Positions 11,443 through 44,597 of a stretch of DNA of 64,000 bases are shown here, in pieces. The notes below the pieces were generated by a model. The model saw nothing but the letters and a program-made list of their open reading frames with translations, was not told the origin of the DNA and searched no databases. The translations under genes were made by a program, and so were the position numbers. The DNA comes from an uncultured Spirochaetales bacterium (GTDB lineage Bacteria > UBP6 > UBA1177 > JAKLFG01). The DNA lies in NCBI GenBank assembly GCA_964412895.1, contig CAYPQK010000001.1:5041-69040 (forward strand). The letters run 5' to 3'. Positions within the stretch are counted from its first letter, which is position 1. Every line of letters starts with the position of its first letter.

Positions 11443-13313
11443 AGGTCGGACGAGCAGCCCTCAAGGAAGGCCGCGGTGCGCTCGTGATAGGTGATGCGGT
11501 TCTTCTTTTTGCGGAAGCCGTGTCCCTCGTCGTCGAAGATGAGCATCTCGGGCTTGTTCCCGGCGGCGGTGAGTTTTTCGGCGAGGATGTAGGCGTCGCT
11601 CACCGGGACACGCGGGTCGTTGGCGCCGTGGGCGATGAAGAGCTTCCCCTTGATGCGGTCGGCCATGGTGGTGGGGCTGATCGAACGGAGGAACGCTTCG
11701 TCCTCGAGAGGCCCGTATTCGACCTCGCGCAAAGCCTTGCGGTACGACTTGGTGTTCTTGAGGAAGTTGATGAAGTCGACCACTCCCACGGTGTCGACGC
11801 CGCCGCGGAACCGGTCGGGGAACTGCGCCATCGAGGCGACTGTCATGAAGCCGCCGTAACTGCCGCCCATCGCGATGAAGCGGTCGGAGCGCGACAGTCC
11901 GGCGCGGACGAGATCGTCGAGCACCGCGCCGGCATCCTTCACCGAATCCATCCGCAGTTTGTAATTGTCCAGTTCGGTGAAGCGGCGGCCGTAGCCGGTC
12001 GAGCCGCGGACATTGGGGGCGGCGACGGCAAACCCTTTTTTAAGGTAGTATTGGAAGACGGCGTTGAAGCCGGGGACGAACTGTCCTTCGGGACCGCCGT
12101 GGAAATAGACGATGGTGCGGTAGGGGGGTGTCCCCGTTTTCGGGGTGAAGAGGAAGTAGGGGATCTCGAGGCGGTCGAACGAGGCCGTTGTGCGCAGTAC
12201 GGGGGCGGTGAAGGCGGCCACATCGATGCCGCGCGTGTCGGTGAGGCCGAATTCCTCGGGGGCGCCGCCGTCCAGCCGCAGCACGACGGGCCGCGGTATG
12301 GCGTCGGGCCGCGACAGGGTGTAGACGAGCCGCCCGTCCGTAAGGTCGCCCAGCGAGAGCACCCCGGCGCCGGTGGGGAGCACCGTCGTGACGCCGGCGC
12401 GCCACCGGCGGCAGACCGACCAGCCCGCCTCGTTGGTGCAGAAGACGATACCGGCGCGGTCGCGGCGGTCGACGAGCGCCGTATCGACGCTCCACGGGCC
12501 GGCGTGAAGCACCGTCCGTTTGCCTGCCTTGTCACGCAGTTCAAGGTATTGGGTGTCGCTTCCTTCGTCGGTGATGAGGGCGATGCGGCCGTCGTTCAGA
12601 AAGCCGACCGGCTGATAGTAGCGGTCGTCCATCGTCCCCTTGAGTTTGCGCGCGGTGCCGTTCTCGAACAGGTACGGGACGGTGGCGGTACTGCTCTGCA
12701 CCGTGTGGAAGAGGATCTGGTCGGCGCTCTTCGCGTCGTCGATGACCTGCATCCCCGTTTTGTCGGACAGAAGGCGCTTTTTGCCGGTCGCGATATCGTA
12801 GAGGTAGATATAGAAATCGCGGCGGCTTACCTCGTTGGCGGTGTAGAGGAACCGTTCTTCGTCGAGCCAGAGAACATTTCCGAAACGGACCTCGGGATCG
12901 GCGAGCAGCGGCGTTATCTTCCCGTCGGCGAACGACAGCAGGTAGATGCCGTACTGTTCATTGCCGCCGGGCGCCATGAGGAACAGGAGCCGCGTCCCGC
13001 CGGGACTGACCGTGTAGCCGTCGACCGAATCGGCGCCGCCGGTAAGTTGCCGCCGTTCGCCGCCGTTATCAAGATAAAGCTGTTTGACCTCGCCGGGACC
13101 GCGCGACAGGAAAAGTTTGCGGCCGTCGGGGAATACATGCCCCGCTGCCGAATCGACGATCTCGAGATAGTCGCGCACCCGGTCTCCCGGCACCGTTGCG
13201 GTGTCGGCGTCGACTACGGCCGGCGCGGCGCGCGAACAGGATAGAAGGAAAATAAGGAGAAAAAGACCGCCCGCGAAGAGGCGGATATAACTAGAATTCT
13301 TCGAACTGATCAT
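11439..13313 (-). CDS. S9 family serine peptidase (prolyl oligopeptidase/DPP-like) with N-terminal beta-propeller and lipoprotein signal
   Basis: Catalytic GGSYGG nucleophile motif and a C-terminal alpha/beta hydrolase with DPRV...HGF. Stop overlaps the U32 start by 4 bp. Confidence 0.85.
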
Positions 13314-14718
13314 CGTCGAAAAAGCCGTTCTCGCGCGTTTTCTGCTCGCCGGCGACGGCGGTGGGACTCCGTTTAGGCGTCGCGGCGGGGGCCGGCGGGA
13401 TGAGCGGCCGCGCGGGAAGAGCGGAAGGAGGTTGGAGGGCGGGAGCGGCCGTCAGGGTCGCCGGCGGTTCGAACCGCATGAAGGCGGCGTTCGGGTCCGA
13501 GACGCGGAACTTCTCGAGCTCTCCGGCCAGCTGGCGCGATATATTGGCCATATCCTCGGCCGAGCTCGCGAGCTCCTCGACCAGCGACGCGTTGCGCTGG
13601 GTCACTTCGTCCATCTGCATGATGGCCGAATTTATCTGATGGATGCCCGATGCCTGTTCCTTGGACCGTTTCTCGATGTCCTGTATGGAAAGGCTCGCTT
13701 CCTGTATGCGGCTCACGAGCTGGAGAAGGACCTTTGTGGTCTTGGTCGAGAGTTCGGTGGCGTTACGGATGTTCTCCTCGTTCTTCTCGACCAGTTCCTT
13801 GATCTCGGTAGCGGCGTCGGCGCTGCGGGCGGCCAGACTGCGCACTTCACTGGCGACCACCGCGAAGCCCTTTCCCTCTTCGCCGGCGCGCGCCGCTTCG
13901 ACCGCGGCGTTGAGCGCGAGCAGATTGGTCTGGAACGCGATATCGTTCACGACATTCACGATCTCCTGTATCTTATCGCCCGATTCCTTGACGGTGGTGA
14001 CGGCGGTCGCCATCTCGGCGAGCATCCGCGAACCGTTCTCGGCGTCGGTGGTGGTGCGGCGCATCTTGGTGGCCGCTTCGGCCGACAGGCTCGCTGCCTC
14101 CTGGATGGAGGCCGTTATCTCTTCGACCGACGCGGCGGTCTGCTGAAGCGATGAGGCCATCTGCTGGGTCGCAGTCGACAACTGATTGTTGCCCGAGGAG
14201 ACCTCCTGCGCCGAGGTGAGGACCTGCTCGGAGCTGGTCTTGATGGTTTTGAGGATATGCTCGATGTTACTCGCGGTCTTGTTGAAACCGGAGACCAGCG
14301 GGGCGAGATCGGGATCGTTGTGTATCTCGATGCGCTTGGAAAAATCGCCGTTCTTGAGCGATTCGAACACATGGGCCAGTTTCGTGAGCGGGATATAGAG
14401 CACCTTGCGCAGGAAGATAAGGAACAGGAAGGTCAGCAGCAGTTCAAAAAAGAGGGTGAACAGGAATGTGGGGAGGAGTCCGGCCCCTTCCCTCTTATAG
14501 TTGTCGGTGAACGCGCGCGCCTCTTCGGCGGCCCGGACTTTTGCCTGCGCGTCGCCCTTCTCGAGGGTCACCGCTTCGAGATGTTTGATGGCGCGTTCCG
14601 CGGTCCCTTCCGCCTTGGAGACGAGGAACCACTCGGAAGAAAGGAACATGACGAACAGCAGTACGGCAAAGCCGATGATGGCCTTTCGGCTGCTCAACCA
14701 GCGTATAAAGGAGGTCAT
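13291..14718 (-). CDS. Methyl-accepting chemotaxis protein (TM, HAMP, MCP signalling domain)
   Basis: Highly conserved MCP core [31 protein letters not shown]. Probable ATG start at 14718 (MTSFIRWL...). The track start at 14778 is a TTG in a non-coding-looking leader. Confidence 0.8.
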
Positions 14719-14855: not shown

Positions 14856-15983
14856 ATGAAACGCTCTGTGATGATGTTCGCGGCCGTGGTGACGGCGCTG
14901 TTCCTGACCATGGGATGCGACAACGACAAAAAGGAGACGAACACTACCGATCTCGATTTCGCCTTCTCTGACGACACGGCGGCGCCCGACGGCGATTCGA
15001 TCGTCGCCGATACCGGGGAAACGCCCGATCTGGTGCAGGACGATCTGCTTTCCGACAGCGACACCGTGCCCGATTTCGGTTACAATGTCTTCTTTCAGGT
15101 CATGACCATGTTCACCTTCGGCCAGCCCATGGCGATGTCGTTCGGCGCCATCATGAAGACGGCACGCGAAGAGCTGGATCCCGACCAAGAGACCCATCTG
15201 CCGCTCGATACCTGCGAGTTCAGCACCGGCGGCGAGACGCCGACACCCGAATGCACCTCCGACGACGAGTGTGCGCCGGAGCAGAAGTGTCTAGCCGACA
15301 CCGATAATAACGGCAAGGCGATCGCGGGGACCGAGAGCTGCAAAACGCCCAACCGTGAACCGCTTGACCGCGGTCCGATCATCGTCACCGGCTTTGTCGG
15401 CGGCCCGGTCACCTTCCTGTACGAACCGAACGACAGGGTCTACAAGAAGGACGGGACCGGCGACGGATCGATAGACATCGCGCTGCTCGCGTTCAATCTC
15501 GACTATACCCTTGCCGCCGAAGGACAGGACGACCTCCAGGCCTTCTCGGGGACCGTCTATATGCCGCCGTCGCTCGAACTCACCTATCCCGAACTCAAGC
15601 CCGGCAGCGGTTCGATGCCCTTCCCGGCGGCCGATGTCGATCCGACCAAGGATGTGCTCATTAAATGGTCACAGCCCAATCCGGGCGCCGAGATGGACCT
15701 GACGCTGACCGGCGAAAGCGGATCGGTCGTCTGCCGCGTAACGGACGACGGCGAATTCACCATACCGGTCGCGCTCGTTTCGCAGATAACCTTCGGCACC
15801 GGCTTCAACGCCTTCGCCAACAACATCATCCTTGACCGTAAGTTCTCCGAGAACATGGAAGGGGAGAATGTCACCGCCGGCATGTTCACCGCCGAAGAGA
15901 TGATCACGGTGATGGTCAACGCCGTCACGGCTTCCGATGTCGATGTGATCTCCGATGAGGACGAACTGCTGCCCGATAACTGA
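14856..15983 (+). CDS. Hypothetical secreted lipoprotein with Asp-rich N-terminal linker
   Basis: GGAGGAA RBS. Signal plus lipobox LTMGC. No recognised family. Confidence 0.6.
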
Positions 15984-23737: not shown

Positions 23738-24848
23738 TCAGGTGCACTCGTAGCCGGTCGGACAGGCGCCGAAGTTGTCGGCGTTCTGGCCGTTGTCGTT
23801 GTCGCAACCGGACCAGTCGGTCCAGTGGCAAGTGTTTTCGTCGCAGTAGCGGATGCGGTATTCGGTGCCGGGATCGCAGCCTCCGCCGCCGCTGCCGGTG
23901 CAGTACTGCGCGTTGCTGTCGGTCTCGCACTCTTCCCCTTCGGTATCATCGATATTGCCGTCGCCGCAGTAGGGGGCCATGCCGTCGGCACAGCCGGTGT
24001 TGCAGTGGCCGTAGGTGCCGTCGTTGACCGTGTCGTCGCAGTCCTCGCCCTCTTGGTCGTCGACCGTGCCGTCGCCGCAGTAGGGGCCCATGCCGGAGGC
24101 ACAGCCGGGGTTGCAGTAGCCGTAGGTGCCGTCGTTGACCGTGTCGTCGCAGTCTTCGCCCGCTTCGGTGTCGATATTGCCGTCGCCGCAGATGGGGCCG
24201 GGACCCTGACAGTCGATGGCACAGTAGCCGTAGGTGCCGTTGAGGATGACGCCGTCGTCGCAGTCCTCATAGCCGGTGTCGGTGTTACTGTCGCCGCAGC
24301 GCGGGCCGGGTCCGGTGCAGATGGCGTTGCAATGACCGTAGGTGCCGTTGAGCGTCTCGCCGTCGTCGCACGCTTCGGTCCCGTTGATCGTACCGTCGCC
24401 GCAGAAAGCGATAACGATGTCGTTGTCGGGCGTTATGGTGCCGTCGTCGGTGACGATGCCGTCATCGGTCGGCGTTTCGTCGGTGTCGGTCGTGGCATCG
24501 GGTTCGATCGTGTCGTCGTCGGAGGGGAGGATGTCATCGTCGGTATCGTCGGGCTGGACGATGTCGTCGTCGGGCGTTATGGTGTGGTCGTCGGTCACCG
24601 GCTTGTCCGATTCGACGGGCGGCGTATCCTTGTCGAGGCCGTCGCCGTCGCCGGTATCGTCGGCGTCGGTCGCGGTATCGGTCACGGGGTCGTCGATGAG
24701 CGGATCGTCGATCAGAAGCTCGTCGGAATCGTCGAGCAGGTCGGAGTCGCCCGGCACGGCATCTTTATCGCTCGGGACGATATTGTGGGTGTTCTCACTG
24801 CACGCGAACGCCGCGAAACAAAGCGACACAAGGATGAACCACTTCATG
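23738..24848 (-). CDS. Secreted lipoprotein with acidic linker and tandem Myxococcus-type cysteine-rich repeats
   Basis: GGGGAG RBS. Signal plus lipobox FACS. About 4 repeats of CGDGxxxxxExCDDGxxxNGTYGxCxxxC. Confidence 0.7.
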
Positions 24849-24933
24849 AAATTCTCCCCTATACATACCAATTACCAGTCGAGTATGCATCCGATTCTCC
24901 CTGAAATCAAGTGTTTTTTCTTTGCCGGTCGAT

Positions 24934-24962
24934 TTGACAGATGCCTCGTTTTTTATTAGACT
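24934..24962 (+). promoter_or_regulatory. Sigma70-like promoter for the 25008 gene
   Basis: TTGACA, 17 nt spacer, TAGACT, in the divergent intergenic region. Confidence 0.45.
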
Positions 24963-25007
24963 CACTCCATTCTATGGTTTTTTTACCAAACGAGGGGGAG
25001 AATGATC

Positions 25008-27227
25008 ATGAAGAAGATGTTGTTTGTGTGTCTTTTCGTCGGCTTGATGCCGTGCCTGTTGAGCGCCTTACCGCAGTTGTCTGTCACCAAGAGCGGCAGC
25101 GGCGCCGGCGTGGTGACCGACGATGGCGGAGTCATCGATTGTGGCGACACCTGCTCGTCCGGTTATGCCGCCGATACGGTGGTGACGCTCGCCGCCGCCG
25201 CCGCCACCGGCAGTCATTTCGTCGAATGGACCGGCGCCTGCACCGGTTTCGGCGCCTGCGTGGTGACGATGGACGCGGACAAGACGGTCAATGCGAAGTT
25301 CGACTGCGATAACGGTACCATCAACCCGCTCGATGGTCTCTGCGGACTCAACGGCCGCGGCGATCACTACGAAGAATGCATTGAAGGCGCGTGGGAGGAG
25401 CAGTGCGACGATCCCGATACCTGCACCAGCGGCGCTACCCAGTGCGACGGCAGCAATAACTATAATCTCTGCGAAATGCAGTTGGATACCGGCAACTACG
25501 ACTGGACCGTCGTCTCCTGCACCGACGAACATGACTGTACCGTCGATTCGTGCGACGACACGCTCGGCTGTGTCAACGCTCTTGCCGACACCGACACCGT
25601 CTGCGCTCCGGCCGCCGGGGTGTGCGATGCGGTCGAATACTGTGACGGCACCCATCCCGACTGTGTGTTCGATCTGAAACTGACCATAGAATGCAACGCC
25701 AAGGTCGGCGACTGCGATGTGGCCGAGAATTGCGACGGCATCGAGAACGACTGTCCGATCGACGGGGTCGCCGGCAATACCGTCGTCTGCCGTGACGCCG
25801 ACGGTGATTGCGATGCGGTCGAAAAATGCACCGGCTCGTCGAAATCATGTCCCGGTGACGGCGTGAAGGGTTCCGACATCGTCTGCCGCCCGATAGCCGG
25901 CGTCTGCGATGTGGCCGACAACTGCGACGGGATGAACAAGAGTTGTCCTACCGACGAATTCGCGGCCAACACCGTTCCCTGCCGCACCGCCGACGGAGAA
26001 TGCGATGTCGCCGAGAACTGTCCCGGCAACGCCGCCGCCTGTCCCGTTGACGAATTCGTCGCGATCGACACCCCGTGCGGAAGCGGCGTGGATGTGGTCT
26101 GTAACCGTGCCGACACCTGCGACGGCGAAGGGACCTGTCAGCCCAACTATTCAGACATTGAGACCATCTGCCACGTATCCACCGGCATTTGTGATCCGGC
26201 CGAGACCTGTGACGGCGCCGGGAATTGTCCGGTCGATCTCCTTGCCGGTACCGACACCGTCTGCCGCTCCGCCGTCGATGTGTGCGATGCCGACGAGGTC
26301 TGCGACGGCGCGAATGTCGACTGTCCCGCCGAGGATTACACCGCGGTCAACGGAGACGAGTGTGTCGATGGCTACGATTACACCGACACCGAGACCTGTG
26401 CCGACGGCGTCTGTTCCGGTGCCGAAGTGGTCGGTTCCTGCGCGGCGGCCTACACCGTGACGACGCTCCCCTACACGCTGGAGAGCACCACCATCGGCCG
26501 TCCGAGCCACATCGACACCTATGGCCTCAACTGCCCGCTGTCGAGCGCGCCGCTGGGTGACGCGGTCCTCAATGTTGCGATGGATTCGTCGAAGGATTAC
26601 ACCATCTCCATCACCCGCACCGGCGGCTGGACCGGCTTCATCGCCGTTATCCCGATGTGCACCGAATTCTTCACCAACACCACCTGTCTGAACTCGAACT
26701 CCGCCGCCGATTCGTTCACCTACTCGCCCGCCATCAGCGGGAACGCCACCATCGTCGTTGAATCGAACAGCGCCGAGGGCGACTTCACCCTCACCATCGA
26801 AGAGGTCGAGGTCATCGTCCCCGACGATACGCCGATCACCGACGACGACACCATCCTGACCGACGAGATAGCCACCGACGACATCGTGACCGATGATGTG
26901 GTGACCGACGATATCGTGACCGATGAAATACTGTCCGACGAAGCGGGCGACGATGGCGATTTCCTTCCGGGTGAGTTTGACGAGCCGGTCACCGACGACG
27001 GCACGGTGCAGGACACAGACACGGTCGTCGCCGACAACCAGACCGACACTGACACCGTCGTGACCGACACCAAGCCCGATACCGACACCACGGTCACCGA
27101 CAACGAGACACCGGACGAGGCGAGTGACGCGCTCCTCGGCGATGAAGACAATATCACCACCGACACGACCGGCACCGATACCGACAAACCGGGCGACGAT
27201 GGTTGCGGCTGTAGCGTGGTGTTCTAA
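25008..27227 (+). CDS. Secreted cysteine-rich repeat protein with N-terminal InlB-B-like bacterial repeat domain and C-terminal Asp/Thr-rich tail ending GCGCSVVF
   Basis: GGGGGAG RBS 7 nt before the ATG. Signal peptide. At least 8 repeats of CDxAExCDGxxxxCPxD. Low-complexity TDDxVTDD tail. Confidence 0.7.
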   Translation: MKKMLFVCLFVGLMPCLLSALPQLSVTKSGSGAGVVTDDGGVIDCGDTCSSGYAADTVVTLAAAAATGSHFVEWTGACTGFGACVVTMDADKTVNAKFDCDNGTINPLDGLCGLNGRGDHYEECIEGAWEEQCDDPDTCTSGATQCDGSNNYNLCEMQLDTGNYDWTVVSCTDEHDCTVDSCDDTLGCVNALADTDTVCAPAAGVCDAVEYCDGTHPDCVFDLKLTIECNAKVGDCDVAENCDGIENDCPIDGVAGNTVVCRDADGDCDAVEKCTGSSKSCPGDGVKGSDIVCRPIAGVCDVADNCDGMNKSCPTDEFAANTVPCRTADGECDVAENCPGNAAACPVDEFVAIDTPCGSGVDVVCNRADTCDGEGTCQPNYSDIETICHVSTGICDPAETCDGAGNCPVDLLAGTDTVCRSAVDVCDADEVCDGANVDCPAEDYTAVNGDECVDGYDYTDTETCADGVCSGAEVVGSCAAAYTVTTLPYTLESTTIGRPSHIDTYGLNCPLSSAPLGDAVLNVAMDSSKDYTISITRTGGWTGFIAVIPMCTEFFTNTTCLNSNSAADSFTYSPAISGNATIVVESNSAEGDFTLTIEEVEVIVPDDTPITDDDTILTDEIATDDIVTDDVVTDDIVTDEILSDEAGDDGDFLPGEFDEPVTDDGTVQDTDTVVADNQTDTDTVVTDTKPDTDTTVTDNETPDEASDALLGDEDNITTDTTGTDTDKPGDDGCGCSVVF

Positions 27228-27250
27228 TTATTCCCGGAAGCTCTGCTGAT

Positions 27251-27280
27251 AAAAAAAACGGCCCCTCGGGTGAGGGGCCG
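27251..27280 (-). terminator. Rho-independent terminator of groESL
   Basis: On the minus strand: GGCCCCTCACCCGAGGGGCC hairpin followed by TTTTTTTT. Confidence 0.6.
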
Positions 27281-27306
27281 TAGCATGGACAAAGCCTAAG
27301 TTTTGA

Positions 27307-28962
<1,656 letters not shown>

Positions 28963-28974
28963 TCAACTCCCTTA

Positions 28975-29265
28975 TTATTTAGAAACTATCGCCAGCACAT
29001 CCTCTTCGCGGAGGATAAGGTGCTCTTCGCCTTCGATCTTGATGTCGGTGCCGCCGTACTTGCTGAACAGTATCCGGTCGCCCTTCTTCACTTCCATCTT
29101 CATCCGCTCGCCGCTGTCCAGCATCTTGCCGGGACCGACCGCGACCACTTCACCCTCGACCGGTTTCTCTTTCGCCGTGTCGGGAATGATGATGCCGCCT
29201 TTGGTCATGGTCTCGCTCTCAAGCCGCCGCACGATGATGCGGTCATTCAGGGGTCTCAGTTTCAT
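28975..29265 (-). CDS. groS: Co-chaperonin GroES (10 kDa)
   Basis: Full-length GroES ([29 protein letters not shown]...). Confidence 0.95.
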
Positions 29266-29305
29266 GGTGCCCTCCGTTATAGGTTTGGTGAACTATTTCA
29301 ATAAC

Positions 29306-29332
29306 CTAGCACTCACCACAGGCGACTGCTAA
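29306..29332 (-). promoter_or_regulatory. CIRCE operator (HrcA binding site) in the groES leader
   Basis: On the minus strand TTAGCAgTC-N9-GAGTGCTAg against the consensus TTAGCACTC-N9-GAGTGCTAA. It lies immediately downstream of a promoter. Confidence 0.8.
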
Positions 29333-29340
29333 CGGCGGTA

Positions 29341-29367
29341 GTTATAATCGCGGCCGGGCCGTTGTCA
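29341..29367 (-). promoter_or_regulatory. Sigma70-like promoter of groESL
   Basis: On the minus strand: TTGACA, 16 nt spacer, TATAAC. Confidence 0.6.
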
Positions 29368-29432
29368 AGTTATTTGCCAGCCGTTTTTTTATATGCTAGG
29401 ATGCCTGCGGGCAACCGAAGGAGGGACAACTC

Positions 29433-30299
29433 ATGAAATGGTTCATCGTTATGCTGACGGCGTGCGCTACCTTATCTATAGCAGCGTGCGACGACGGTAC
29501 CACCAATACCGGCACCGACCATGGCGTCGATGCCGACATCCCGCTCTGGGATAACACGGCCGGGGGCGATACGACGACCGACATGGATGCGGCGGTGTCG
29601 GACGATCCGACAGATCAGTCAGATCAAACGATAACTCCCGACGATACCGTCACCGATACTACCGTCACCGACGACACGGTGACCGACAACGACGCCGAGC
29701 AACCCGACATCGACACCGCGCCGGGCTACAAGTACTGCTACCGCGTCTGTCCGTCGGGAGTGGCCGACTGCGTCGTCGCCAACGCGACGGCGATCACCGA
29801 TGGCGATAATTATACCTGCGACAATGGTCTGTGCGTCTACACAGGGTGCAACAATTCGGCCGAGTGCGAAACGACCTACCAGACGACCACCTACGGCTGC
29901 AACACCGATCCGGGCTACGGTACGCCGACCTGCGCACAGAAGTGTTCGACCGCCGGCGACTGTGTGACCCAATACTCCCAGCCCGCCTACGATCTCGACA
30001 ACTACTCCTGCACCGGACAGGGTTTCTGCAAGTATAACGGGTGCAACACCGATCAGGAGTGCATCGACACGATGAGTTCGACCGGCAAGATATACGGCTG
30101 TTTCCTGAACGAGGCGATGGGGGCGAAATTCTGCGAGATCCGCTGTTCCTCCTACCTCGACTGCGGCTCAACTTCGACCCCCGCCTACACGCCGGACCGC
30201 TACACCTGCGAAGGAGAACGGTGCATCTATCACGGGTGCCAGACGGCGCAACAGTGCATCGACTCGATGGGCGCCGGTTACGACTGCCGCGAACCGTAA
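29433..30299 (+). CDS. Secreted lipoprotein with Thr/Asp-rich linker and 4 cysteine-rich repeats
   Basis: GGAGGG RBS. Signal plus lipobox IAAC. Repeats of the type C..DC....Y..D.Y.C..G.C.Y.GC....EC. Confidence 0.65.
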   Translation: MKWFIVMLTACATLSIAACDDGTTNTGTDHGVDADIPLWDNTAGGDTTTDMDAAVSDDPTDQSDQTITPDDTVTDTTVTDDTVTDNDAEQPDIDTAPGYKYCYRVCPSGVADCVVANATAITDGDNYTCDNGLCVYTGCNNSAECETTYQTTTYGCNTDPGYGTPTCAQKCSTAGDCVTQYSQPAYDLDNYSCTGQGFCKYNGCNTDQECIDTMSSTGKIYGCFLNEAMGAKFCEIRCSSYLDCGSTSTPAYTPDRYTCEGERCIYHGCQTAQQCIDSMGAGYDCREP

Positions 30300-36488: not shown

Positions 36489-36539
36489 GGTTATCATCCG
36501 CAACCGGTTTCGATAGTGAACCATGAGTGGGAGTATAGC

Positions 36540-39500
36540 ATGAAGCGTATCGTTGTTGCTCTTATCTGGATTATGTTCCTGTCCCTCGTAGTAGGCGGCT
36601 GTTCCACCAAGGATCAGTGTAACGCCGACACCGACTGCAAGACGGGCTACGCCTGCGGTGACGACAAGAAGTGTCACGAGATACAGGTGGCGCTCCTCTT
36701 CCAGGACATCGCCGACGGTCAGACCCTCACGGTCGCCGACGATCTGGACAAGAGCGACGAGGCCATCCAGATCAATGTCACCGTTGCCGCGCAGGCGACG
36801 GCCGGCTCGATAAAGGACGGCACGGCGATCACCCTCGAGGTGAAGAGTTCCGCGGCCGAGACCTCCGACGGCGACACCGTGAACGGCACCGCCGCGACCG
36901 CGACGAAAAGCTATGCCGGGATACTCGTCAACGGCTTCGCCCGTTTTCTCAATATCCCCTTCGCGGAAGGACAGCATACCGTGACCGCCTATCTGACCCT
37001 GAGTCCCGCCATCAAGGTGACGGCGACCCTCACCGCCACCTATGAACAGACCGATACGCTGGTCATGCGCTACTATAAAGGCGGCACCACTCCGACGATG
37101 CTCGAAGGGGCGACGCTCGACGACAACGACGATCTCAACAAAGAGGCGGCGAATTTTCAGGTGAAAATGGAAGCGGTGACCACCGGGTATGCCGACGGGC
37201 AGGTGGTCGAGATATTCATCGAAGGCTACAGCATCACATGGGCGCCGGCCATCATAGAGGACGGCGTGGCGTCGTTCCCGTCGTTCGTCGTGCCGATATG
37301 GGCCGACATCGTGATGCGGGTGAAGGTGGCCGATGTCGAGGATACGCTCGCCTTCAGCGCCGTTTCGGCGGAGTCCTGCGGCTTTGCGCTCGATATCCAG
37401 AACAACGACCGGTTCGGCATGGCCGACGATACGAGTGCCGGACTCAGCGGTCTCCAGAAGATGCTCACCATCAGCGATGTCACCCTCTGCTCTACCGGTT
37501 CCGAGATAGAGATATACATCGACGGCGTGCCGGGCACCGACGAACCTGACGAAACGCTGACTCTCGGCGCGGCGTCGGTCCAGCAGTCGATCACCCTGCC
37601 CGAAAGCGCGAACCAGACCGATACCCGCACCGTCACGGTGGTGATGAAGGATGACGACAGCTCGGCGACCGGCCAGATGACCGTCACCGGTCTGTTCGTC
37701 GACATCACGGCGCCGACACTGAGTGTCACTGCGCCGCTTGATAACACCACCCTTACCCCGGTCGACGACACCAATACTTCGCTGGAAGGGGTCCAGATAG
37801 CGGTCACCGGTTCGGCATCCGACTCGTTGTCGGACGAGGTCACGGTCGAGGTGCGCGACGGCACGACGCTGTTGGGCGATACGACCGGTACCGGCGACTA
37901 CTCCGTGGACGATGTCTCCTTCACCGCGACCAACGAGGCGCTGACGCTCGCGGTCACCGCCCGCGACGCCATCGGCAACGAAACGGTCGTCGAGGTCCCG
38001 CTCAAGGTCTATGTGAACGATCCGGTGATAGCCTTCCAGACCATCTGCGCCCGGACCCCGGTCATGAATATGCAGCTTTCGTCGGCCGACGACGGCGACC
38101 AGCTCGCCGGCGGCGTCCAGTGCGCCGTCATCGTCCGGACCACCGACATCGAATCGGCCTCGACCGAGGTGTCGCTGAATATCAACGATGAAGATCCGAT
38201 AGTCGAAACGATAGGGACCGGCGGCCTCACGCTGTTCGACATGGTCACCCTGCCCGACGGCGAGGATTCGCTCACGGCCCGGGTCATGCATCTGGGGACC
38301 GCATACCAAACCGGGATCACCGTGCAGGTCGATGCGACCCTGCCGGTGGTGACGCTCACGCTCACCCCGACGGTCGACGGCGGGTTCGCGCAGTCGGTCG
38401 ACGCCGACTTCGCCTTCTCGTGCAGCGAAGCCGATTGCGAATACAGCTACCGTATCGACAGCGGAGCTTTGTCGGCCTACGCGACGACCGCCACCGCCGA
38501 ATACACCGCGCTGGCCGAAGGGCTTCATACCTTCGCCGTTCAGGCCCGCGACCCGTTCGGGAATGTCGGCGATCTGACCGTCTTCAACTGGACGATCGAT
38601 CACACGGCGCCCGCCGCCCCGACGGTGACCGGAGTAACGCCGACCAACGATACGACCCCCGAATGGTCGTGGAACACCCCGACCGGCACGGTCGAATTCC
38701 GTTACAGCACCGACCAGACGAACTGGACGACGACCGCCGTCACCGCCTTCACCCCGGCCCCGGCGCTCGCCGAGGGCGACCAGATACTCTATGTGCAGGG
38801 CCGTGACGCCGCCGGCAACTGGTCGGCGAGCGGATCGTTCACCATCACCATAGACACCACCGCCCTTTCCGCCCCGGTCGTGAGCGGCACCACGCCGACC
38901 AACGACACCACCCCCAAATGGTCGTGGGACGCGATAACCGACGCGGTCGAATATCGCTACAGTTACACCGACGGCTCCGGCTGGACGACGACCGCCGACA
39001 ACTTCTTCATTCCGGTCACGGCGCTCACCGCGGGCGACCACACCCTCTTCGTTCAGGCCCGCGACGCGGCGGAGAACTGGTCCGACAGCGGCTGGTTCAC
39101 CATCACCATAGACCTCACCGCTCCCGCCGCCCCGGAGGTGCTCGGCACCACGCCGACCAACGACACCACGCCGAACTGGTCGTGGATACCGGTCGCCGAC
39201 GCGGTCAACTACCGCTACAGCTACGATGAGATGACTTGGACCGAAACCGTCGATACGACCTTCACCCCGACCACGCAGCTCGCCGCGGGGACTTATACCC
39301 TTTTCGTTCAGGCGCAGGATGCCGCCGGCAACTGGTCGCTTTCGGGATCGAAGGAGGTTGTGATCGACCTGTCGACGCCCAATGCGCCGGTGGTTACCGG
39401 CGTAACGCCGACCACCGATACGACGCCGACCTGGTCATGGGGCGCGGTGACCGACGCGGTCGAATACCGCTACAGTTACACCGACGGCTCCGGCTGGGCG

Positions 39501-42500
39501 ACGACGACCGCTCTTTCCTTCACGCCGTCCGCGGCGCTCGCCGAGGGCTTTGTCACGCTCTTTGTGCAGGCCCGCAACGGCGTCGGCACTTGGTCGGGCA
39601 GCGGGCTTTTCACCATCGAGATAGATATCACCGCCCCGGCGGCGCCGACGGTGACCGGCATAACGCCCACCAGCAACACCCAGCCGACTTGGTCGTGGGA
39701 CACCCCGACCGACGCGGTCGAGTTCCGTTACAGCTACGACGAATCTTCGTGGACCGTTACGACGGCCAATTCTTTTACCCCGGGCAGTGCGCTGATCGAC
39801 GACGCCTATACCCTTTATGTCCAAGCCCGCGACGCGGTCGGCAATTGGTCGACGAGCGGATCGTTCGAGATCGTGGTGGACACCGAGGCGCCGGTCGCGC
39901 CGACGGTGACCGGTACCACGCCGACCAACGACACGACGCCAACTTGGTCGTGGAATACCCCGGTCGGCGCGGTCAACTTCCGCTACAGCTACACCGATGG
40001 ATCGGGCTGGACCGAAACAACCGGCACCAGCTACACCGCCGCCCCGGCCCTTACCGCCGGTACCTACACGCTCTATGTGCAGGCCGCCGACGCTACCGGT
40101 AACTGGTCGACGAGCGGCAGTTTCGCCATCACGATAGACACCACCGCGCCGACGCTGGTTATCGGTGCGCCGTCGGCGACCGTTGCGAAGAACGGGACCG
40201 ATGTGACCTATACCGTCACTTACTCCGGCGCCGACACCGTGACGCTGGCGAACGGCAACATCACGCTCAACGCGACCGGCGGCGCCTCGGGCTCCGTCGC
40301 AGTGACCGGCACCGGCACGGTGACCCGCACCGTGACGATATCGAACCTGACCGGGAACGGCACGCTCGGCATCAGCATCGCGGCCGGAACGGCGAGCGAC
40401 ACGGCGGGGAACACCGCCCTCGCGGCCGGTCCGTCGGCCACCTTCACGGTCGATAACACCGCGCCGACCGTGGTCATCGATCCGGTCAATGCCTGCACCC
40501 GCCGGACGACCGGCACGATCTCGTTCACCGTGACCGGCGCGACCACCACCACCTGCCGGTTCGACACCCCCGCCGGGCTCGGCACACCGGGCGCCTGCGG
40601 CGGCTCCTACGGATATACCCTCGTCGATGGCGACGGCACCTATACCCTCACCGTCACGGCGACCGACGATGCCGGCAACAGCGGCTCGGACGATGCCTTC
40701 TTCTCGCTCAACACCACCACGCCGACCGTCCAGTGGTTCCTGCCGGCCAGCGGCACCAGCTACAAGGCCGGTTCTGCGGTGCCGAGTTTCGTCTACCGCA
40801 CCAAGAACCTCGAGGCGGGCGAAATGGTCGAGATCATAGATGCTGACACCGGACTTGCCTTGGCCAGCGGGATCACCGCCGGATCGCTCTGCAACGCGAC
40901 CGAGGATGTCTCGATACCGCTCGATCTGCCCGACAAGTGCGGCACCTACAAACTCTACGCCAAGGTCAACGACGGCGTCGACTCCGTTGATCGCTACACC
41001 GATAATCTTACGGCACTTCCGGCGACCCAGCGTACCTACACCTTCGACCGCGACGAGCCGGTCATCTCCTCCTTCGTGGTGAATAACGACGCCGACAGCA
41101 ACAATGTCCTCATCTCGACCGAGGATGCCGACGGCATCGCGGGCAACGGGATGCAGGCCGATATCACCATCACGGTACAGGACGCCATCGACATCGGCCG
41201 CACCGTGACGCTCCGCAACAAGACGACCGGCAACACCTACACCGCGACGGTCGTGGGCGATAAAACCGCCACCTTCACCGGCATCACGATACCGGAAGGG
41301 ATCAACTCCTTCGGCGCGACGCTGGTCGACTGCGGCGGCAACACCTCCGCCGAGAGCGCGAAGACCATCACCGTCGATACCACCCCGCCGAGCGTCCTGT
41401 TCCAAGGCCCGACCGGCGTGACGCCGGGCCATCCGCTCTGGCTCACCTCGCGCGATGGCACCGTGGTCGGCGACGAACTGATCGGACAGGAGCTGAAGTT
41501 CAAGATAACGGGCGACTGGGATAACGCCACCCCGGTGGTCAAGCATTTCGTGTACGACTATGCCGATGCGCCCGTGGGTGCGGCCCATACCTATACCCTC
41601 GGCGAAATGGACATCGTCGGCACCGAGGTGAGCATCGACCTCGACGGCTCGGACGATCCCGCCGCGCCGCTCGCCTACAACAAACACAAGTTCGAGATCA
41701 CCGTCGAGGACGCGAACGGCAACATCCGCGTCGCCTCGCGCACCTACGAGGGCGACCCCAAGATCCCGAACGCCGTCATTTCCTATCCGACCGACGAACT
41801 GGTACTCGATGTCACAAAAGATGAGGACGCGGTCGCGTCGGGCGTCCAGTTCACGCTGCACCTCGATCTGACCAAGCTCGCCACCCCGACCGGCACCGAC
41901 TCGACCATCGATATCCTCGCGATACCGATAACGGCGCTCGGCGGCACCGAGGATGGTACCCGCAGCCGCAAATCGTGGAACGGTTTCATCGCCGACACCG
42001 ACGGCGCCGCTCAGACCTTCCCGAACGACGGCACCTTCCTGCGGCTCGGTGACGGCTTCTGGCGCCTGACGGTCAAGGTGACCGACGACCACCAGAATGT
42101 CTACGACACCGCTCTCCTGCCGGTCGCTCAACAGATCGATGTCGATGTGGTGACCGATGTTGCCTCTTCGTCGCTCTATCTCAGTAACGATAAACTCATC
42201 AACGGTACCCAGACCGCCCCGACATGGCTCAACAGCAACGACGGCGGTCCCACCTACGATCTGTATGTCGAGACCGATTCCCCGAACGGCACGAACAACG
42301 CCTGCATAAATGTCAACGCCGGAGGCGACATCTGCGCTGATGTGGACGCCGGCCGTGCCGAATTCACCGCGGTGGCGCTCACCACCGGCGGGGTCGAGAA
42401 CACCATCGTGTTGACGGTCAACAACGGCGTTGCGGTCGCGACCGACACCTACTATGTCCGCGCCGACAACACCGATCCGACGCTCGATCCGGCGACCGAT

Positions 42501-44597
42501 GTCAATCCGGAGCCCTATGTCCACGGCGCCGGTATCTGGGAGATCGGCTACGGTTATGACGACGACATCGACCATGACACCACCGCGATACTCGAACTCG
42601 ACGGCGCCTCGGTGAACCGGCTCATCTTCGTCATCGGCAACATCGAGGATGTGGCGGGCTACACGACCCACGGGACCGTCGTCCTGACCCCGGTCGACGC
42701 GATCGGCGGGACCACCACCGTCAATATCGCCGAGGACGGCGCCGACATGATGGCCGAATTCACGAACCTCACCTTCGAGGACAGCGTCATCGGCGGTCAG
42801 ACCGACATCGAGATGCTGGTGACGATAACCGAACAGCCCTCCGGCAACACCTACACCAAAACGATCTTCGTCCATGTCAATCTGGAGAAACCCGAAGGTA
42901 TCACCCCGACCGTGACCACCGATCCGGCCCGCGGCGAATCTTTCGTTCAGTGGAATGCCGTCGTCGGCAACAATTCGGCCTACGCCGGTGCGTTCCAGAA
43001 CCGCGTGTACGAATATCAGGTGAAGTATGAACAGTATGGCGGCGCCTGTTCGCTCGATGACAGCGAAAGTGCGTTCGACACCGGCGTCGCGATCACTCCG
43101 CTGGCCGACTTCTCGGTGGCCGATCCGTCGCTCAACGGCGATGATTTCGTCGCGCCCAAAGCGGCGGGCGAAGCGCAGAACTACATGTTCTACCTAAAGA
43201 AACGGTCGAATATCGCCCTCACCCAGACCGCCGACATCCACCGGAACGGCGATCCCTACTGCTTCGCGGTCCGCGCCAGCGACGGCATCTATGCGCAGGA
43301 CGGCACGATACTTGTGACAAATACCTCGCCCATCTTGTCTACCAATGTTGTGGATAAGGGAGCGATACAGTTGACCTCTAATGAGCTGATAGCAACGGCC
43401 GCGGGTGCCCATTCAACCATGAATATCAAGAATATGGGCGACATCAACGGCGATACCAAGACCGATTTTGTCATTTCCGATTCGGGTCGGCAGAAAGCGT
43501 ATGTGTTCATCAGCAACGCGGTAGGCGCTCCGACAAAACTGGAACTGGTCAATCCGGTGGATGTCGGTATCACCTCTTTCGGGTATCGTCTCGCCCTCGC
43601 CGACCTTAATGGTGATGGATTCACGGATGTTCTGGTAAGCGATGTCGGCACGAAGAGCATCCATATTTATTATGGTATAGCCAATTCGGTCAATACCGCT
43701 CGCGGCGATAAGATCACCTTTGTCGATACCATATCCGACCTTTCTGGTATCGGCGATTTCAATGGCGACGGATGTCATGATCTTGTTGTCGGGCAGGCAT
43801 CGTATGACGATCCGGGGAATGCGGCCCCCGGCGACCAGACGGGGCGGGCTTTCGTGGTTTATGGTGACGACAAAGGCGCCGCGGGAAAGACCTGCATCGG
43901 CGATTATACTACGCAGGTCGGCGTCTCTTATCTCGGTTCAGCCGCCGGCGAACGGTTCGGATACAATGTCCGGAAAATCGGGAACATCAAGAACGAAATG
44001 AATGGCACCGTGCCCTACGGTTGTTTTGTCGGCGGACATTATGACAATGTCAATCCGGCATCCGCCAAGATCACTAAGGCCAAAGTGTTCTATGGTTCCG
44101 CTGCTCCGGTCGGCGGCAATATCACCTCCTATGATGTCACCGTTAACGGTCTTGCTCAACTTCGCACCCTCTTCTTCGGGAAACTCAACGGTGACGATTT
44201 CTCCGATTTCGGCATCATTGACAGCGGTAAGATAAAATTCTTCTACGGGTCGGCCGCCGGTACCGTTTTCCCGGGCGTATGGACCGAAGGGACCAATCAG
44301 ATCACCCGTAGCGACATCATGGATGAAGTGGCGGGCGTCGAAAGCGGCGTGTGGGGATTGGGCAGTTCCGGATATGCCGAAGATATCAACGACGATGGGC
44401 TGACCGATTTCTTCATCAACGGAGAAAAGGATCAGTATATGTATAGCGGGATGGGCACCTTCTTTACGATGCACCCCGCTCTCTATATGGGTCTTCCCAT
44501 AGGGGCAGGCAGTTCACAGTCGACGATCCTTTCCTACGGACTGGTGGTGTGTAACCGCAACACCGATGCCGGTAATTGTATGTTGTATTATCGTTAA
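36540..44597 (+). CDS. Giant (2693 aa) surface adhesin-like lipoprotein with tandem Ig-like repeats and C-terminal FG-GAP/VCBS repeats
   Basis: GGGAG RBS. Signal plus lipobox VGGC. Six tandem repeats of about 85 aa (TPTNDTTPxWSW...YRYSxxDxxxW...). C-terminal GDxNGDGxxD integrin-alpha-like repeats. Confidence 0.85.
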   Translation: MKRIVVALIWIMFLSLVVGGCSTKDQCNADTDCKTGYACGDDKKCHEIQVALLFQDIADGQTLTVADDLDKSDEAIQINVTVAAQATAGSIKDGTAITLEVKSSAAETSDGDTVNGTAATATKSYAGILVNGFARFLNIPFAEGQHTVTAYLTLSPAIKVTATLTATYEQTDTLVMRYYKGGTTPTMLEGATLDDNDDLNKEAANFQVKMEAVTTGYADGQVVEIFIEGYSITWAPAIIEDGVASFPSFVVPIWADIVMRVKVADVEDTLAFSAVSAESCGFALDIQNNDRFGMADDTSAGLSGLQKMLTISDVTLCSTGSEIEIYIDGVPGTDEPDETLTLGAASVQQSITLPESANQTDTRTVTVVMKDDDSSATGQMTVTGLFVDITAPTLSVTAPLDNTTLTPVDDTNTSLEGVQIAVTGSASDSLSDEVTVEVRDGTTLLGDTTGTGDYSVDDVSFTATNEALTLAVTARDAIGNETVVEVPLKVYVNDPVIAFQTICARTPVMNMQLSSADDGDQLAGGVQCAVIVRTTDIESASTEVSLNINDEDPIVETIGTGGLTLFDMVTLPDGEDSLTARVMHLGTAYQTGITVQVDATLPVVTLTLTPTVDGGFAQSVDADFAFSCSEADCEYSYRIDSGALSAYATTATAEYTALAEGLHTFAVQARDPFGNVGDLTVFNWTIDHTAPAAPTVTGVTPTNDTTPEWSWNTPTGTVEFRYSTDQTNWTTTAVTAFTPAPALAEGDQILYVQGRDAAGNWSASGSFTITIDTTALSAPVVSGTTPTNDTTPKWSWDAITDAVEYRYSYTDGSGWTTTADNFFIPVTALTAGDHTLFVQARDAAENWSDSGWFTITIDLTAPAAPEVLGTTPTNDTTPNWSWIPVADAVNYRYSYDEMTWTETVDTTFTPTTQLAAGTYTLFVQAQDAAGNWSLSGSKEVVIDLSTPNAPVVTGVTPTTDTTPTWSWGAVTDAVEYRYSYTDGSGWATTTALSFTPSAALAEGFVTLFVQARNGVGTWSGSGLFTIEIDITAPAAPTVTGITPTSNTQPTWSWDTPTDAVEFRYSYDESSWTVTTANSFTPGSALIDDAYTLYVQARDAVGNWSTSGSFEIVVDTEAPVAPTVTGTTPTNDTTPTWSWNTPVGAVNFRYSYTDGSGWTETTGTSYTAAPALTAGTYTLYVQAADATGNWSTSGSFAITIDTTAPTLVIGAPSATVAKNGTDVTYTVTYSGADTVTLANGNITLNATGGASGSVAVTGTGTVTRTVTISNLTGNGTLGISIAAGTASDTAGNTALAAGPSATFTVDNTAPTVVIDPVNACTRRTTGTISFTVTGATTTTCRFDTPAGLGTPGACGGSYGYTLVDGDGTYTLTVTATDDAGNSGSDDAFFSLNTTTPTVQWFLPASGTSYKAGSAVPSFVYRTKNLEAGEMVEIIDADTGLALASGITAGSLCNATEDVSIPLDLPDKCGTYKLYAKVNDGVDSVDRYTDNLTALPATQRTYTFDRDEPVISSFVVNNDADSNNVLISTEDADGIAGNGMQADITITVQDAIDIGRTVTLRNKTTGNTYTATVVGDKTATFTGITIPEGINSFGATLVDCGGNTSAESAKTITVDTTPPSVLFQGPTGVTPGHPLWLTSRDGTVVGDELIGQELKFKITGDWDNATPVVKHFVYDYADAPVGAAHTYTLGEMDIVGTEVSIDLDGSDDPAAPLAYNKHKFEITVEDANGNIRVASRTYEGDPKIPNAVISYPTDELVLDVTKDEDAVASGVQFTLHLDLTKLATPTGTDSTIDILAIPITALGGTEDGTRSRKSWNGFIADTDGAAQTFPNDGTFLRLGDGFWRLTVKVTDDHQNVYDTALLPVAQQIDVDVVTDVASSSLYLSNDKLINGTQTAPTWLNSNDGGPTYDLYVETDSPNGTNNACINVNAGGDICADVDAGRAEFTAVALTTGGVENTIVLTVNNGVAVATDTYYVRADNTDPTLDPATDVNPEPYVHGAGIWEIGYGYDDDIDHDTTAILELDGASVNRLIFVIGNIEDVAGYTTHGTVVLTPVDAIGGTTTVNIAEDGADMMAEFTNLTFEDSVIGGQTDIEMLVTITEQPSGNTYTKTIFVHVNLEKPEGITPTVTTDPARGESFVQWNAVVGNNSAYAGAFQNRVYEYQVKYEQYGGACSLDDSESAFDTGVAITPLADFSVADPSLNGDDFVAPKAAGEAQNYMFYLKKRSNIALTQTADIHRNGDPYCFAVRASDGIYAQDGTILVTNTSPILSTNVVDKGAIQLTSNELIATAAGAHSTMNIKNMGDINGDTKTDFVISDSGRQKAYVFISNAVGAPTKLELVNPVDVGITSFGYRLALADLNGDGFTDVLVSDVGTKSIHIYYGIANSVNTARGDKITFVDTISDLSGIGDFNGDGCHDLVVGQASYDDPGNAAPGDQTGRAFVVYGDDKGAAGKTCIGDYTTQVGVSYLGSAAGERFGYNVRKIGNIKNEMNGTVPYGCFVGGHYDNVNPASAKITKAKVFYGSAAPVGGNITSYDVTVNGLAQLRTLFFGKLNGDDFSDFGIIDSGKIKFFYGSAAGTVFPGVWTEGTNQITRSDIMDEVAGVESGVWGLGSSGYAEDINDDGLTDFFINGEKDQYMYSGMGTFFTMHPALYMGLPIGAGSSQSTILSYGLVVCNRNTDAGNCMLYYR
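38600..40140 (+). repeat. Six tandem repeats of about 255 bp (85 aa) inside the giant adhesin gene
   Basis: Repeated protein motif APAAPTVTG(V/T)TPTNDTTPxWSW...(E/N)(F/Y)RYS...FTP..AL..G.YTL(F/Y)VQA(R/Q)DA(A/V)GNWS.SGSF.I.ID. Confidence 0.8.

Follow-up and report, generated by a model that had tools for sequence, protein, structure and literature searches.

Three cysteine-rich exported proteins beside groESL

We analysed a 64,000-nucleotide stretch of contig CAYPQK010000001.1, from an uncultured Spirochaetales bacterium; this whole stretch is referred to below as the window. It contains three genes, here called A, B and C, that encode exported proteins with Cys-rich repeats, and groEL and groES lie between B and C. 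The Cys-rich repeat proteins belong to known families, and the gene cluster itself is ordinary. Our main subject is the extreme C-terminus of protein B, GCGCSVVF, which, judged from sequence, appears to represent an undescribed, widespread short Cys-containing C-terminal sorting tag, a variant of the Cys-containing sorting signals. The genes and the elements between them are as follows.

23738-24847 (-): gene A, 369 residues, predicted lipoprotein
24934-24962 (+): promoter-like site TTGACA-17-TAGACT, 5′ of B in the divergent A/B intergenic region; a consensus match only
25008-27227 (+): gene B, 739 residues, exported, with a C-terminal Cys tag
27177-27227 (+): the key feature, the C-terminal short Cys tag of B, DTDKPGDDGCGCSVVF, with the TAA stop codon; the protein ends GCGCSVVF
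27258-27281 (strand not applicable): GC-rich, terminator-like hairpin between the convergent B and groEL
27307-28959 (-): groEL, between B and C
28975-29265 (-): groES, between B and C
29433-30299 (+): gene C, 288 residues, predicted lipoprotein, DUF7478

An earlier note on this DNA had marked out the three open reading frames, all of which we recovered, although the end that it gave for A, 24848, is off by one (24847) and out of frame. A, B and C do not form an operon, since a separate promoter-like site or terminator accompanies each of them.

The C-terminus of B is genuine and recurs on unrelated exported proteins

The GCGCSVVF codons of B are followed by a TAA stop and then by the GC-rich hairpin facing groEL, and none of the three downstream frames encodes a transmembrane (TM) helix. 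Because of the stop codon, the terminator and the lack of a TM helix in any frame, GCGCSVVF is the genuine C-terminus of B. All of the seven B orthologs, with identities of 50-66%, end in D-x-GCGC-[ST]-[VL]-[VI]-F. Similar ends are carried by proteins of other kinds: P0081, which has an unrelated architecture (PPC, LTD and disintegrin domains), ends in ...DAGCGCTMVM, and a second, unrelated secreted protein of the closest available genome (L001) has an acidic linker and then the end ...NGGCSLTVL.

We took a census by scanning metagenome-contig DNA for the pattern D-x-G-C-G-C-[S/T...]-h-h-h-stop, which gave 97 matches. About 50 of them belonged to long open reading frames (120 to >1,800 residues, with D+E at least 20% of the last 60 residues), and the rest were short chance open reading frames without acidic context. 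The distinct tag carriers numbered 43, and their consensus consists of an acidic linker followed by D-T-x-K-[PK]-K-D-x-G-C-G-C-[ST]-Φ-Φ-F-COOH, where Φ is a hydrophobic residue. At the positions that the search pattern left free, counted with the terminal residue as 0, Phe was terminal in 41 of the 43 carriers and S or T occupied -3 in 42, with V, I or L at -1 and L, V, I or M at -2. Further upstream, -14 was T in 26 of the 43, -12 was K in 29 and -11 was P or K in 36, and conservation at these free positions was strong overall. Synonymous codon variation was observed at every position of the tag, and the conservation is therefore at the protein level.

In 43 of 44 carriers, no reading frame beyond the stop codon encoded a TM helix or an Arg cluster, and each of the three stop codons occurred (TAA in 19, TAG in 15 and TGA in 10). 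On these two grounds, we rejected the idea that the short tail arose by frameshift, readthrough or truncation. A signal peptide was present in 26 of the 27 full-length carriers. When the linker and the tag were removed, the remaining bodies fell into at least eight unrelated BLAST clusters; representatives matched the Pfam families Peptidase_S8 (subtilase), Trypsin, CAP, Metallophos, the Rax2/DUF5122 propeller and DUF11, and several had no match.

Variant tails came from neighbouring genes: GDGCGCSVLF, DCCCGCSLVF, DGCSCSVVF and, with a single Cys, GGGCALVVF. What stays invariant is thus one Cys with exactly four residues after it, [S/T/A]-Φ-Φ-[F/L]-COOH. We estimate at least 6-10 carriers per assembly. 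Some are arranged in tandem in arrays of two or three, with three in a row in contigs L040 (6028-12270) and L021 (7024-13587), and the successive carrier reading frames of L040 overlap by a few bases. In Ga0302247_1000101 (27-49 kb; L007, L082 and L091), carriers are clustered within ~20 kb. Two carriers combine an N-terminal lipobox with the C-terminal tag, one in L028 (5992-8283, (-), ..LAAC) and the other in L058 (5697-11165, (+), ..LIAC), and these may be anchored at both ends.

No model of NCBIfam 20.0 or Pfam matches the tag, and no account of a bacterial tag this short turned up in the literature that could be searched. A conserved partner gene beside the carriers was not found either; clustering of the neighbouring gene families returned only bioF, which lies next to the B orthologs.

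Protein B carries disintegrin-loop modules and an acidic tether

Upstream of its tag, B is composed of the following parts.

25008-25067 (+): signal peptide, residues 1-20, MKKMLFVCLFVGLMPCLLSA, of the signal peptidase I type (..LLSA20), without a lipobox
25110-25304 (+): immunoglobulin (Ig)-like InlB B-repeat / Flg_new_2 domain, residues 35-99 (Pfam PF18998, 33 bits)
25602-26360 (+): eight tandem four-Cys modules, residues 199-451, 30-33 residues each
26385-26819 (+): PPC / collagen-binding-domain-like β-sandwich, residues 460-604
26820-27176 (+): acidic D/T/V linker, predicted disordered, residues 605-723, with a predicted local distance difference test score (pLDDT) of ~30

Residue A20 of the signal peptide is invariant among the B orthologs. 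Residues 20-170 constitute a confidently predicted β region, with AlphaFold 2 pLDDT values of 75-92 over residues 20-110. The full-length AlphaFold model was poor (mean pLDDT 45.7, and near 25 in the repeat region) and was left out of the fold search. The DNA of the linker consists partly of imperfect tandem repeats of 15, 30 and 33 nucleotides.

The eight modules had been described as a 26-residue repeat; the conserved core of that description stood, while the period proved to be 30-33 residues. B scored 73.5 bits in seven stretches against the Pfam model Disintegrin (PF00200; threshold 35.1), and the best stretch covered model positions 48-75 of 75, leaving the N-terminal half (Ds, Ca-site II) unmatched. 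A profile built from the eight modules detected ecarin, catrocollastatin, bothropasin and RVV-X in the PDB, with E-values of 1e-6 to 1e-4 and over the disintegrin loop only; PDB sequence searches with the whole of B, or with its repeat region as a single sequence, gave no match. The module consensus, CrsavGvCDaaEnCDGagkdCPvDey, aligns with the disintegrin loop of the P-III snake-venom metalloproteinases (SVMPs). By these profile matches, the B modules are predicted homologs of the disintegrin loop, or Da subdomain, of ADAM and P-III SVMP proteins. What they have in common is the 26-residue core CR.....CD..E.C.G....CP.D, including the ligand consensus of Ca2+-site III. Unlike those proteins, B has only the C-terminal third of the domain, in eight tandem copies and in a bacterial host, and lacks a metalloproteinase, a Ds subdomain and a Cys-rich domain. 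The β-sandwich that follows the modules resembles the collagen-binding/PPC domains of the clostridial collagenases ColG and ColH, but it is only 10-14% identical to them and leaves the Pfam PPC model unmatched.

The Ca2+-binding site III of the ADAM/SVMP Da subdomain has the consensus CD(X)2(E/D)XCXG(X)4C(X)2(D/N) (Takeda 2016, PMC4885070). B contains five exact and seven relaxed copies of it. Among 20,000 shuffles of the repeat region, only 24 gave one or more relaxed matches, against the seven observed. Since the five exact and seven relaxed copies are so rare in shuffled sequences, Ca2+ binding by B is a plausible and reasonable supposition.

The B repeat profile matched 777 of 8,000 scored candidates, with Polyangia, Binatia, Phycisphaerae and oomycetes among those that carry a name. 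Among the strong matches to the repeat array are the oomycete proteins P0045 and P0067 (Saprolegnia and Thraustotheca), which are annotated with a disintegrin domain. The oomycete matches hint at an unusual phyletic distribution or horizontal transfer.

In the B orthologs P0002 and P0005, the Ig-like head is replaced by runs of a C.D.SCD...GC repeat that match the Pfam model Dicty_CTDC (PF00526), and B of the window keeps one such unit at residues 171-199. This repeat type resembles the stalk repeats of TraA (TraA paper).

Proteins A and C are predicted lipoproteins of other families

The features of A and C, together with those of two further lipoproteins of the window, are listed below.

24800-24847 (-): signal peptide of A and lipobox Cys16
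24404-24799 (-): acidic D/T linker of A, residues 17-148
23843-24403 (-): five CGDG Cys-rich repeats of A, residues 149-335
23741-23842 (-): Cys-rich C-terminal end of A, containing CHWTDWSGC, residues 336-369
29433-29489 (+): signal peptide of C up to lipobox Cys19
29490-29726 (+): acidic linker of C, residues 20-98
29727-30296 (+): three eight-Cys repeats of C, equivalent to DUF7478, ~65 residues each
6501-8507 (+): predicted lipoprotein in which the acidic linker is N-terminal; contains bacterial thrombospondin type-3 (TSP3) repeats, of the Ca-binding type; tether design as in A and C
14856-15983 (+): predicted lipoprotein (..LTMG-C) whose acidic linker is N-terminal; no Pfam match; tether design as in A and C

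Lipoboxes were identified by pattern matching and by eye, using the rule [LIVMFWSTAG]2-[LIVMFYSTAGCQ]-[AGS]-C with no charge in the six residues before it. The signal peptides of A (..AAFA-C16) and C (..SIAA-C19) conform to this rule, and both proteins are accordingly predicted to be lipoproteins. The view that A, B and C are all signal-peptide proteins was thus borne out, B being of the signal peptidase I type.

The repeat region of A comprises four full units and one degenerate unit of CGDG..E.CDDG..NGTYG.C, each of 35-37 residues. The comparison with a Myxococcus-style repeat, made in the earlier note, held by a narrow margin: A scored 21.9 bits in one stretch against TIGR02232 (myxo_disulf_rpt), for which the cutoff is 20.8. 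Its score against the Pfam model DUF4215, 17.2, lay under the cutoff of 27. The DNA between 23949 and 24199 is a 111-nucleotide tandem duplication (2.3 copies, 87% identity) that covers two 37-residue CGDG repeats, which suggests a recent repeat expansion. The A ortholog in L001 is 64% identical.

Two other assignments of the A repeats were considered and rejected. As a disintegrin ‘shoulder’ (Ca-site II) module, the repeat profile produced only spurious PDB matches (OAA lectin and a haemagglutinin) in which the Cys residues were not aligned. Membership of the TraA repeat family was ruled out by the models involved, TIGR04201 for TraA and TIGR02232 for A. The CHWTDWSGC in the C-terminal end of A resembles the W-x-x-W-S-x-C core of thrombospondin type-1 repeats at the level of the motif only, with no Pfam TSP_1 match at E<=1.

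C had been read as a fourfold repeat; we found three eight-Cys repeats instead, and the protein scores 185.1 bits in three stretches against the Pfam model DUF7478 (PF24290; cutoff 27). The family is small, with 336 representatives among 1.84 billion clusters. For 135 relatives the N-terminus was complete; a lipobox occurs in 93 of them, and roughly half of the 93 also carry an acidic linker. A PDB sequence search with the Cys region of C detected no solved structure.

The acidic low-complexity linkers that had been noticed in all three proteins are indeed present, with lengths of 78-132 residues and a composition rich in Asp and Thr (D 28-32%, T 15-24%, K+R at most 2%). The lipoproteins pointed out at 6495 and 14856 also proved to carry similar linkers. 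The first of these, encoded at 6501-8507, has ~400 residues without a Pfam match after its TSP3 repeats; these repeats and the disintegrin loops of B form a set of ‘extracellular matrix-like’ modules in this genome. The N-terminal linkers of the lipoproteins and the C-terminal linkers of the tag carriers have the same composition.

A and C would be anchored through the N-terminal lipoprotein Cys. In B the order is mirrored, running from the signal peptide through the Ig-like head, the eight disintegrin-loop modules and the collagen-binding-like domain to the acidic tether and the C-terminal tag. The best explanation for what A, B and C share would be a common design rule, in which a long acidic disordered tether keeps a folded, disulfide-rich, partly Ca2+-stabilised binding module at a distance from a membrane anchor.

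Neighbourhood of groESL and nature of the host

In L001, whose bioD and bioF proteins are ~90% identical to those of the window, the gene order is bioD-bioF-A(-)-B(+) without groESL. The place that groESL takes in the window is occupied there (12076-13581, (+)) by a gene whose product, a predicted lipoprotein (..FFVA-C), combines an acidic linker with a ~400-residue body. In further relatives, B orthologs directly follow bioF with no A between them. In two relatives with GroEL proteins 80-85% identical to that of the window, groESL is flanked by MlaDE and gcvTHP genes in one and by STAS, kinase and two-component-system genes in the other. The gene order of L001 and the unrelated groESL neighbours in both relatives rule out a functional link to groESL; these are housekeeping genes whose position beside A, B and C is, by this comparison of gene orders, taken to be coincidental.

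The nearest relatives of GroEL are 75-85% identical, and the nearest named taxa (Geobacter, Geoalkalibacter and ‘Deltaproteobacteria’) ~70-72%. The host lineage is uncultured, has a GC content of ~58-60% and comes from activated-sludge and other metagenome assemblies. Its lipoproteins, its MlaDE genes and the affinities of its GroEL indicate that it is probably diderm, and the GroEL comparison gives it no recognisable affinity to Myxococcota.

The rest of the window is ordinary chromosome, with metK, bioD/F, ychF, a cation diffusion facilitator (CDF) transporter, signalling genes, glycosyltransferases and large adhesins. A giant lipoprotein of 2,693 residues (36516-44597, (+), ..VVGG-C) is built of repeated ~100-residue Ig-like units of the Big_13 / Y_Y_Y type with FG-GAP repeats at its C-terminus; it would be a very large surface adhesin, and it has no short Cys tag. 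A multi-PAS histidine kinase (54141-58148, (+)) adjoins a PAS protein of ~700 residues (58152-60260, (+)) with a C-terminus that looks to be of the GGDEF type. These two proteins share a near-identical PAS segment of ~125 residues (RYRLIAENTADS...SRD[VI]TERK), which points to a recent domain duplication.

A probable C-terminal sorting signal and its possible mechanism

The tag is very probably a shared C-terminal sorting or recognition signal of this lineage. Considered by the marks that Haft uses for sorting signals, it has unrelated carriers, several to an assembly, and homologs of its carriers elsewhere bear a different signal or an unrelated C-terminus; the mark that it lacks is the tripartite arrangement of a motif, a TM helix and a basic cluster.

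The lipoproteins (lipid-bearing Cys, tether, domain) and the tag carriers (domain, tether, Cys tag) have mirror-image architectures with linkers of the same composition. The simplest reading is that the tag Cys serves as a C-terminal lipid anchor. The carrier would be exported through Sec, after which the K-[PK]-K basic patch and the Φ-Φ-F tail would position the invariant Cys at the membrane surface. Lipid attachment to this Cys would come next, and a membrane protease would trim the four-residue tail, in the manner of myxosortase on MYXO-CTERM or of Rce1 on CaaX. The carrier would remain lipid-anchored by its C-terminus and would reach the cell surface. The single-Cys variants GGGCALVVF and GGCSLTVL, which keep one Cys and four residues, count in favour of such an anchor. 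Taken jointly, a sorting signal that works in this way is the best explanation overall, with a probability of roughly 0.5; the lipidation-and-trimming mechanism considered by itself, which is drawn by analogy, falls slightly short of an even chance. More tentative still is a proposal that makes the tail a first for the bacterial envelope, a sorting signal of CaaX length that is not tripartite. A C-x-Φ-Φ-F-COOH box with a basic patch upstream would be lipidated on its Cys at the periplasmic face and trimmed without a TM anchor. When the Cys and the tail are read in reverse order (F-V-L-S-C), they match the core pattern of a lipobox, as would suit an inverted topology; this is no more than an observation.

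Several points weigh against lipid anchoring by the tag. The weak point of the proposal is that, without a TM helix or a basic cytoplasmic tail, the C-terminus has no evident means of staying at the inner membrane for lipidation and cleavage, as the MYXO-CTERM model needs. The model TIGR03901.2 (cutoff 20) recognised the positive controls, the Myxococcota-type homologs P0075, P0107, P0065 and P0043, with 20.5-26.9 bits. It matched neither B nor P0081, nor any of four further carriers of the short tag, at E<=1. The Cys also stands one position further from the end than in a CaaX box, at -5 rather than -4 when the last residue is counted as -1 (C-x-a-a-F versus C-a-a-X). A 42-residue tag profile run against a database of 5.8 billion proteins returned 1,134 word-sharing candidates, none of which scored, and the census therefore depends on a single DNA scan. 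Neither in the window nor in ~530 kb of lineage DNA could we find a candidate enzyme, of the CPBP type or any other, which is weak evidence because myxosortase genes are unlinked to those of their substrates; a CPBP motif scan of 846 kb returned wrong-frame artefacts only, and Pfam annotation of the rest of the window revealed no CPBP, Lgt or type II secretion system (T2SS) gene. Lastly, the 95% frequency of terminal Phe and the Gly at -5 (terminal residue 0) would also fit a C-terminus resembling the β-signal of outer-membrane proteins (OMPs) or one recognised by a PDZ domain.

A different explanation makes the tail a peptide for docking or recognition in place of a lipidation site. Its hydrophobic, Phe-ending C-terminus would be bound by an outer-membrane partner or by the β-barrel assembly machinery through β-augmentation, or else by a periplasmic protease or chaperone through its PDZ domain, and the vicinal Cys-x-Cys would form a disulfide, possibly with the partner. 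The OMP β-signal has the pattern polar-x-G-x-x-Φ-x-Φ, which the short tag fits roughly. Terminal Phe in 41 of 43 carriers, hydrophobic residues at -1 and -2 and an invariant Gly at -5 speak for docking, as do the lack of a TM helix that would keep the tag in the inner membrane and the failure to find a processing enzyme in the DNA scanned. We nonetheless consider docking unlikely. The single-Cys variants retain the Cys and four residues, which argues that the Cys itself is functional; the signature is identical to the MYXO-CTERM Cys motif on homologous proteins; no conserved partner gene adjoins the carriers; and two carriers also have a lipobox and would be anchored to the envelope anyway. 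The spacing in the single-Cys variants and the identity with the MYXO-CTERM motif favour the lipid anchor over a docking peptide, short of proof.

The remaining explanations make the tail incidental or functionless. The earlier note had regarded A, B and C as one lineage-specific family of Ca-binding, disulfide-rich surface proteins; in the fuller form of this idea, the family would be tied functionally to groESL and GCGCSVVF would be incidental. All three proteins do have signal peptides, acidic linkers and Cys repeats, TIGR02232 matches A, the Ca-site III consensus occurs in B, and the A-B pair is kept in L001. However, the three proteins have three unrelated repeat types from three families, each found well beyond the lineage (777 of 8,000 for the B repeat and 336 clusters for the C family); groESL has other neighbours in relatives, where B orthologs follow bioF without A; and the tail occurs on at least eight unrelated families. 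We regard the single-family view as very improbable, and A, B and C as predicted independent and unrelated proteins of the cell envelope. What survives of the functional description is that they are exported and of the disulfide type, with Ca binding plausible for B, from the five exact site III copies. Even less credible is decay, in which the tail would be a non-functional MYXO-CTERM remnant that lost its TM helix and Arg cluster by truncation, or else an assembly, frameshift or readthrough artefact. The GCGC signature shared with MYXO-CTERM on homologous proteins is what favours it. The last four residues and K-[PK]-K-D are, however, strongly conserved in 43 carriers from many metagenomes despite synonymous divergence; the use of three stop codons and the lack of a downstream TM helix in any frame refute the artefact version; and ~530 kb of lineage DNA contained no full tripartite Cys tails.

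Comparison with known sorting signals

The known signals LPXTG, PEP-CTERM, PGF-CTERM, GlyGly-CTERM, MYXO-CTERM, JDVT-, Synerg- and CGP-CTERM are all tripartite, with a motif, a TM helix and a basic tail. A tag with a Cys signature and four residues, carried by ~6-10 unrelated exported proteins per assembly, challenges the assumed need for a TM helix to present the motif. Current annotation (NCBIfam 20.0 and Pfam) misses the tag, and surface-anchored proteases and adhesins of this uncultured lineage that bear it are presumably filed as ordinary secreted or hypothetical proteins. As an eight-residue anchor tag, it could also serve surface display.

The nearest of these signals in motif is MYXO-CTERM. 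It has three parts, a signature motif (often GCGC) built on an invariant Cys, then a TM helix, then an Arg cluster (Haft 2023 preprint; Guo, Haft & Wall 2025). Myxosortase, an intramembrane protease of the CPBP/Rce1 family, cuts it distal to the Cys, which by then has probably been lipidated; the surface display that comes next depends on the T2SS (Haft 2023 preprint; Guo, Haft & Wall 2025). A proteome contains 3-73 MYXO-CTERM proteins, and myxosortases are not encoded beside their substrates (Haft 2023 preprint). The number of short-tag carriers estimated per assembly is comparable. The short tag is like MYXO-CTERM (with its myxosortases MrtX/MrtC/MrtP, in Myxococcota) in its position at the extreme C-terminus, its invariant Cys within D/G-GCGC, the disordered region before it, the Sec signal peptides of its carriers and the many unrelated cargo proteins per genome. 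Moreover, homologous disintegrin-repeat proteins bear one tag or the other: the Polyangia homologs of B have a full MYXO-CTERM that begins with the same D-G-GCGC, and other homologs have unrelated C-termini. The short tag differs in having no TM helix and no Arg cluster, in the four residues [ST]-Φ-Φ-F after the Cys and in the additional conserved K-[PK]-K-D upstream. Because two of the three defining parts are absent and the hidden Markov model failed, we do not file it as MYXO-CTERM. The earlier description of GCGCSVVF as reminiscent of that signal without matching it therefore holds, since GCGC is shared and TIGR03901 fails on B; the tail is instead a conserved and widely shared short tag.

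TraA of Myxococcus xanthus, a carrier of MYXO-CTERM, has the same general plan as B, with a signal peptide, a binding head, a stalk of Cys-rich repeats and a Cys-containing C-terminal tag. The parts differ: TraA has a PA14 head, TIGR04201 repeats and the full MYXO-CTERM, whereas B has an Ig-like head, disintegrin-loop modules, a collagen-binding-domain-like domain, an acidic tether of 120 residues and the short tag. GlyGly-CTERM, processed by rhombosortase (as in V. cholerae VesB), also has secreted trypsin-like and subtilisin-like proteases among its cargo, and its end result is C-terminal lipid anchoring on the surface, as proposed here for the short tag. Its arrangement is, however, tripartite, including a TM helix and a basic tail; it lacks a Cys, and a rhomboid-family enzyme performs the cleavage.

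A single protease superfamily serves signals as long as MYXO-CTERM and as short as CaaX (Haft 2023 preprint). In length, the short tag stands nearer to the CaaX box of eukaryotes and archaea than to MYXO-CTERM. Both have a Cys close to the C-terminus with a short aliphatic tail after it, and the CaaX protease Rce1 belongs to the same CPBP family as the myxosortases. Polybasic CaaX proteins have a basic patch before the Cys, as the short tag does. CaaX proteins are cytosolic, whereas the tag carriers are exported through Sec. The tag would be a minimal natural substrate for two questions about myxosortase, namely which enzyme modifies the Cys and what the CPBP protease recognises. If it is a lipidated tag of CaaX length, Cys-tag sorting of the MYXO-CTERM/myxosortase kind can do without a TM helix or an Arg cluster, and the tag forms a bridge between the C-terminal sorting tags of bacteria and the CaaX processing of eukaryotes.

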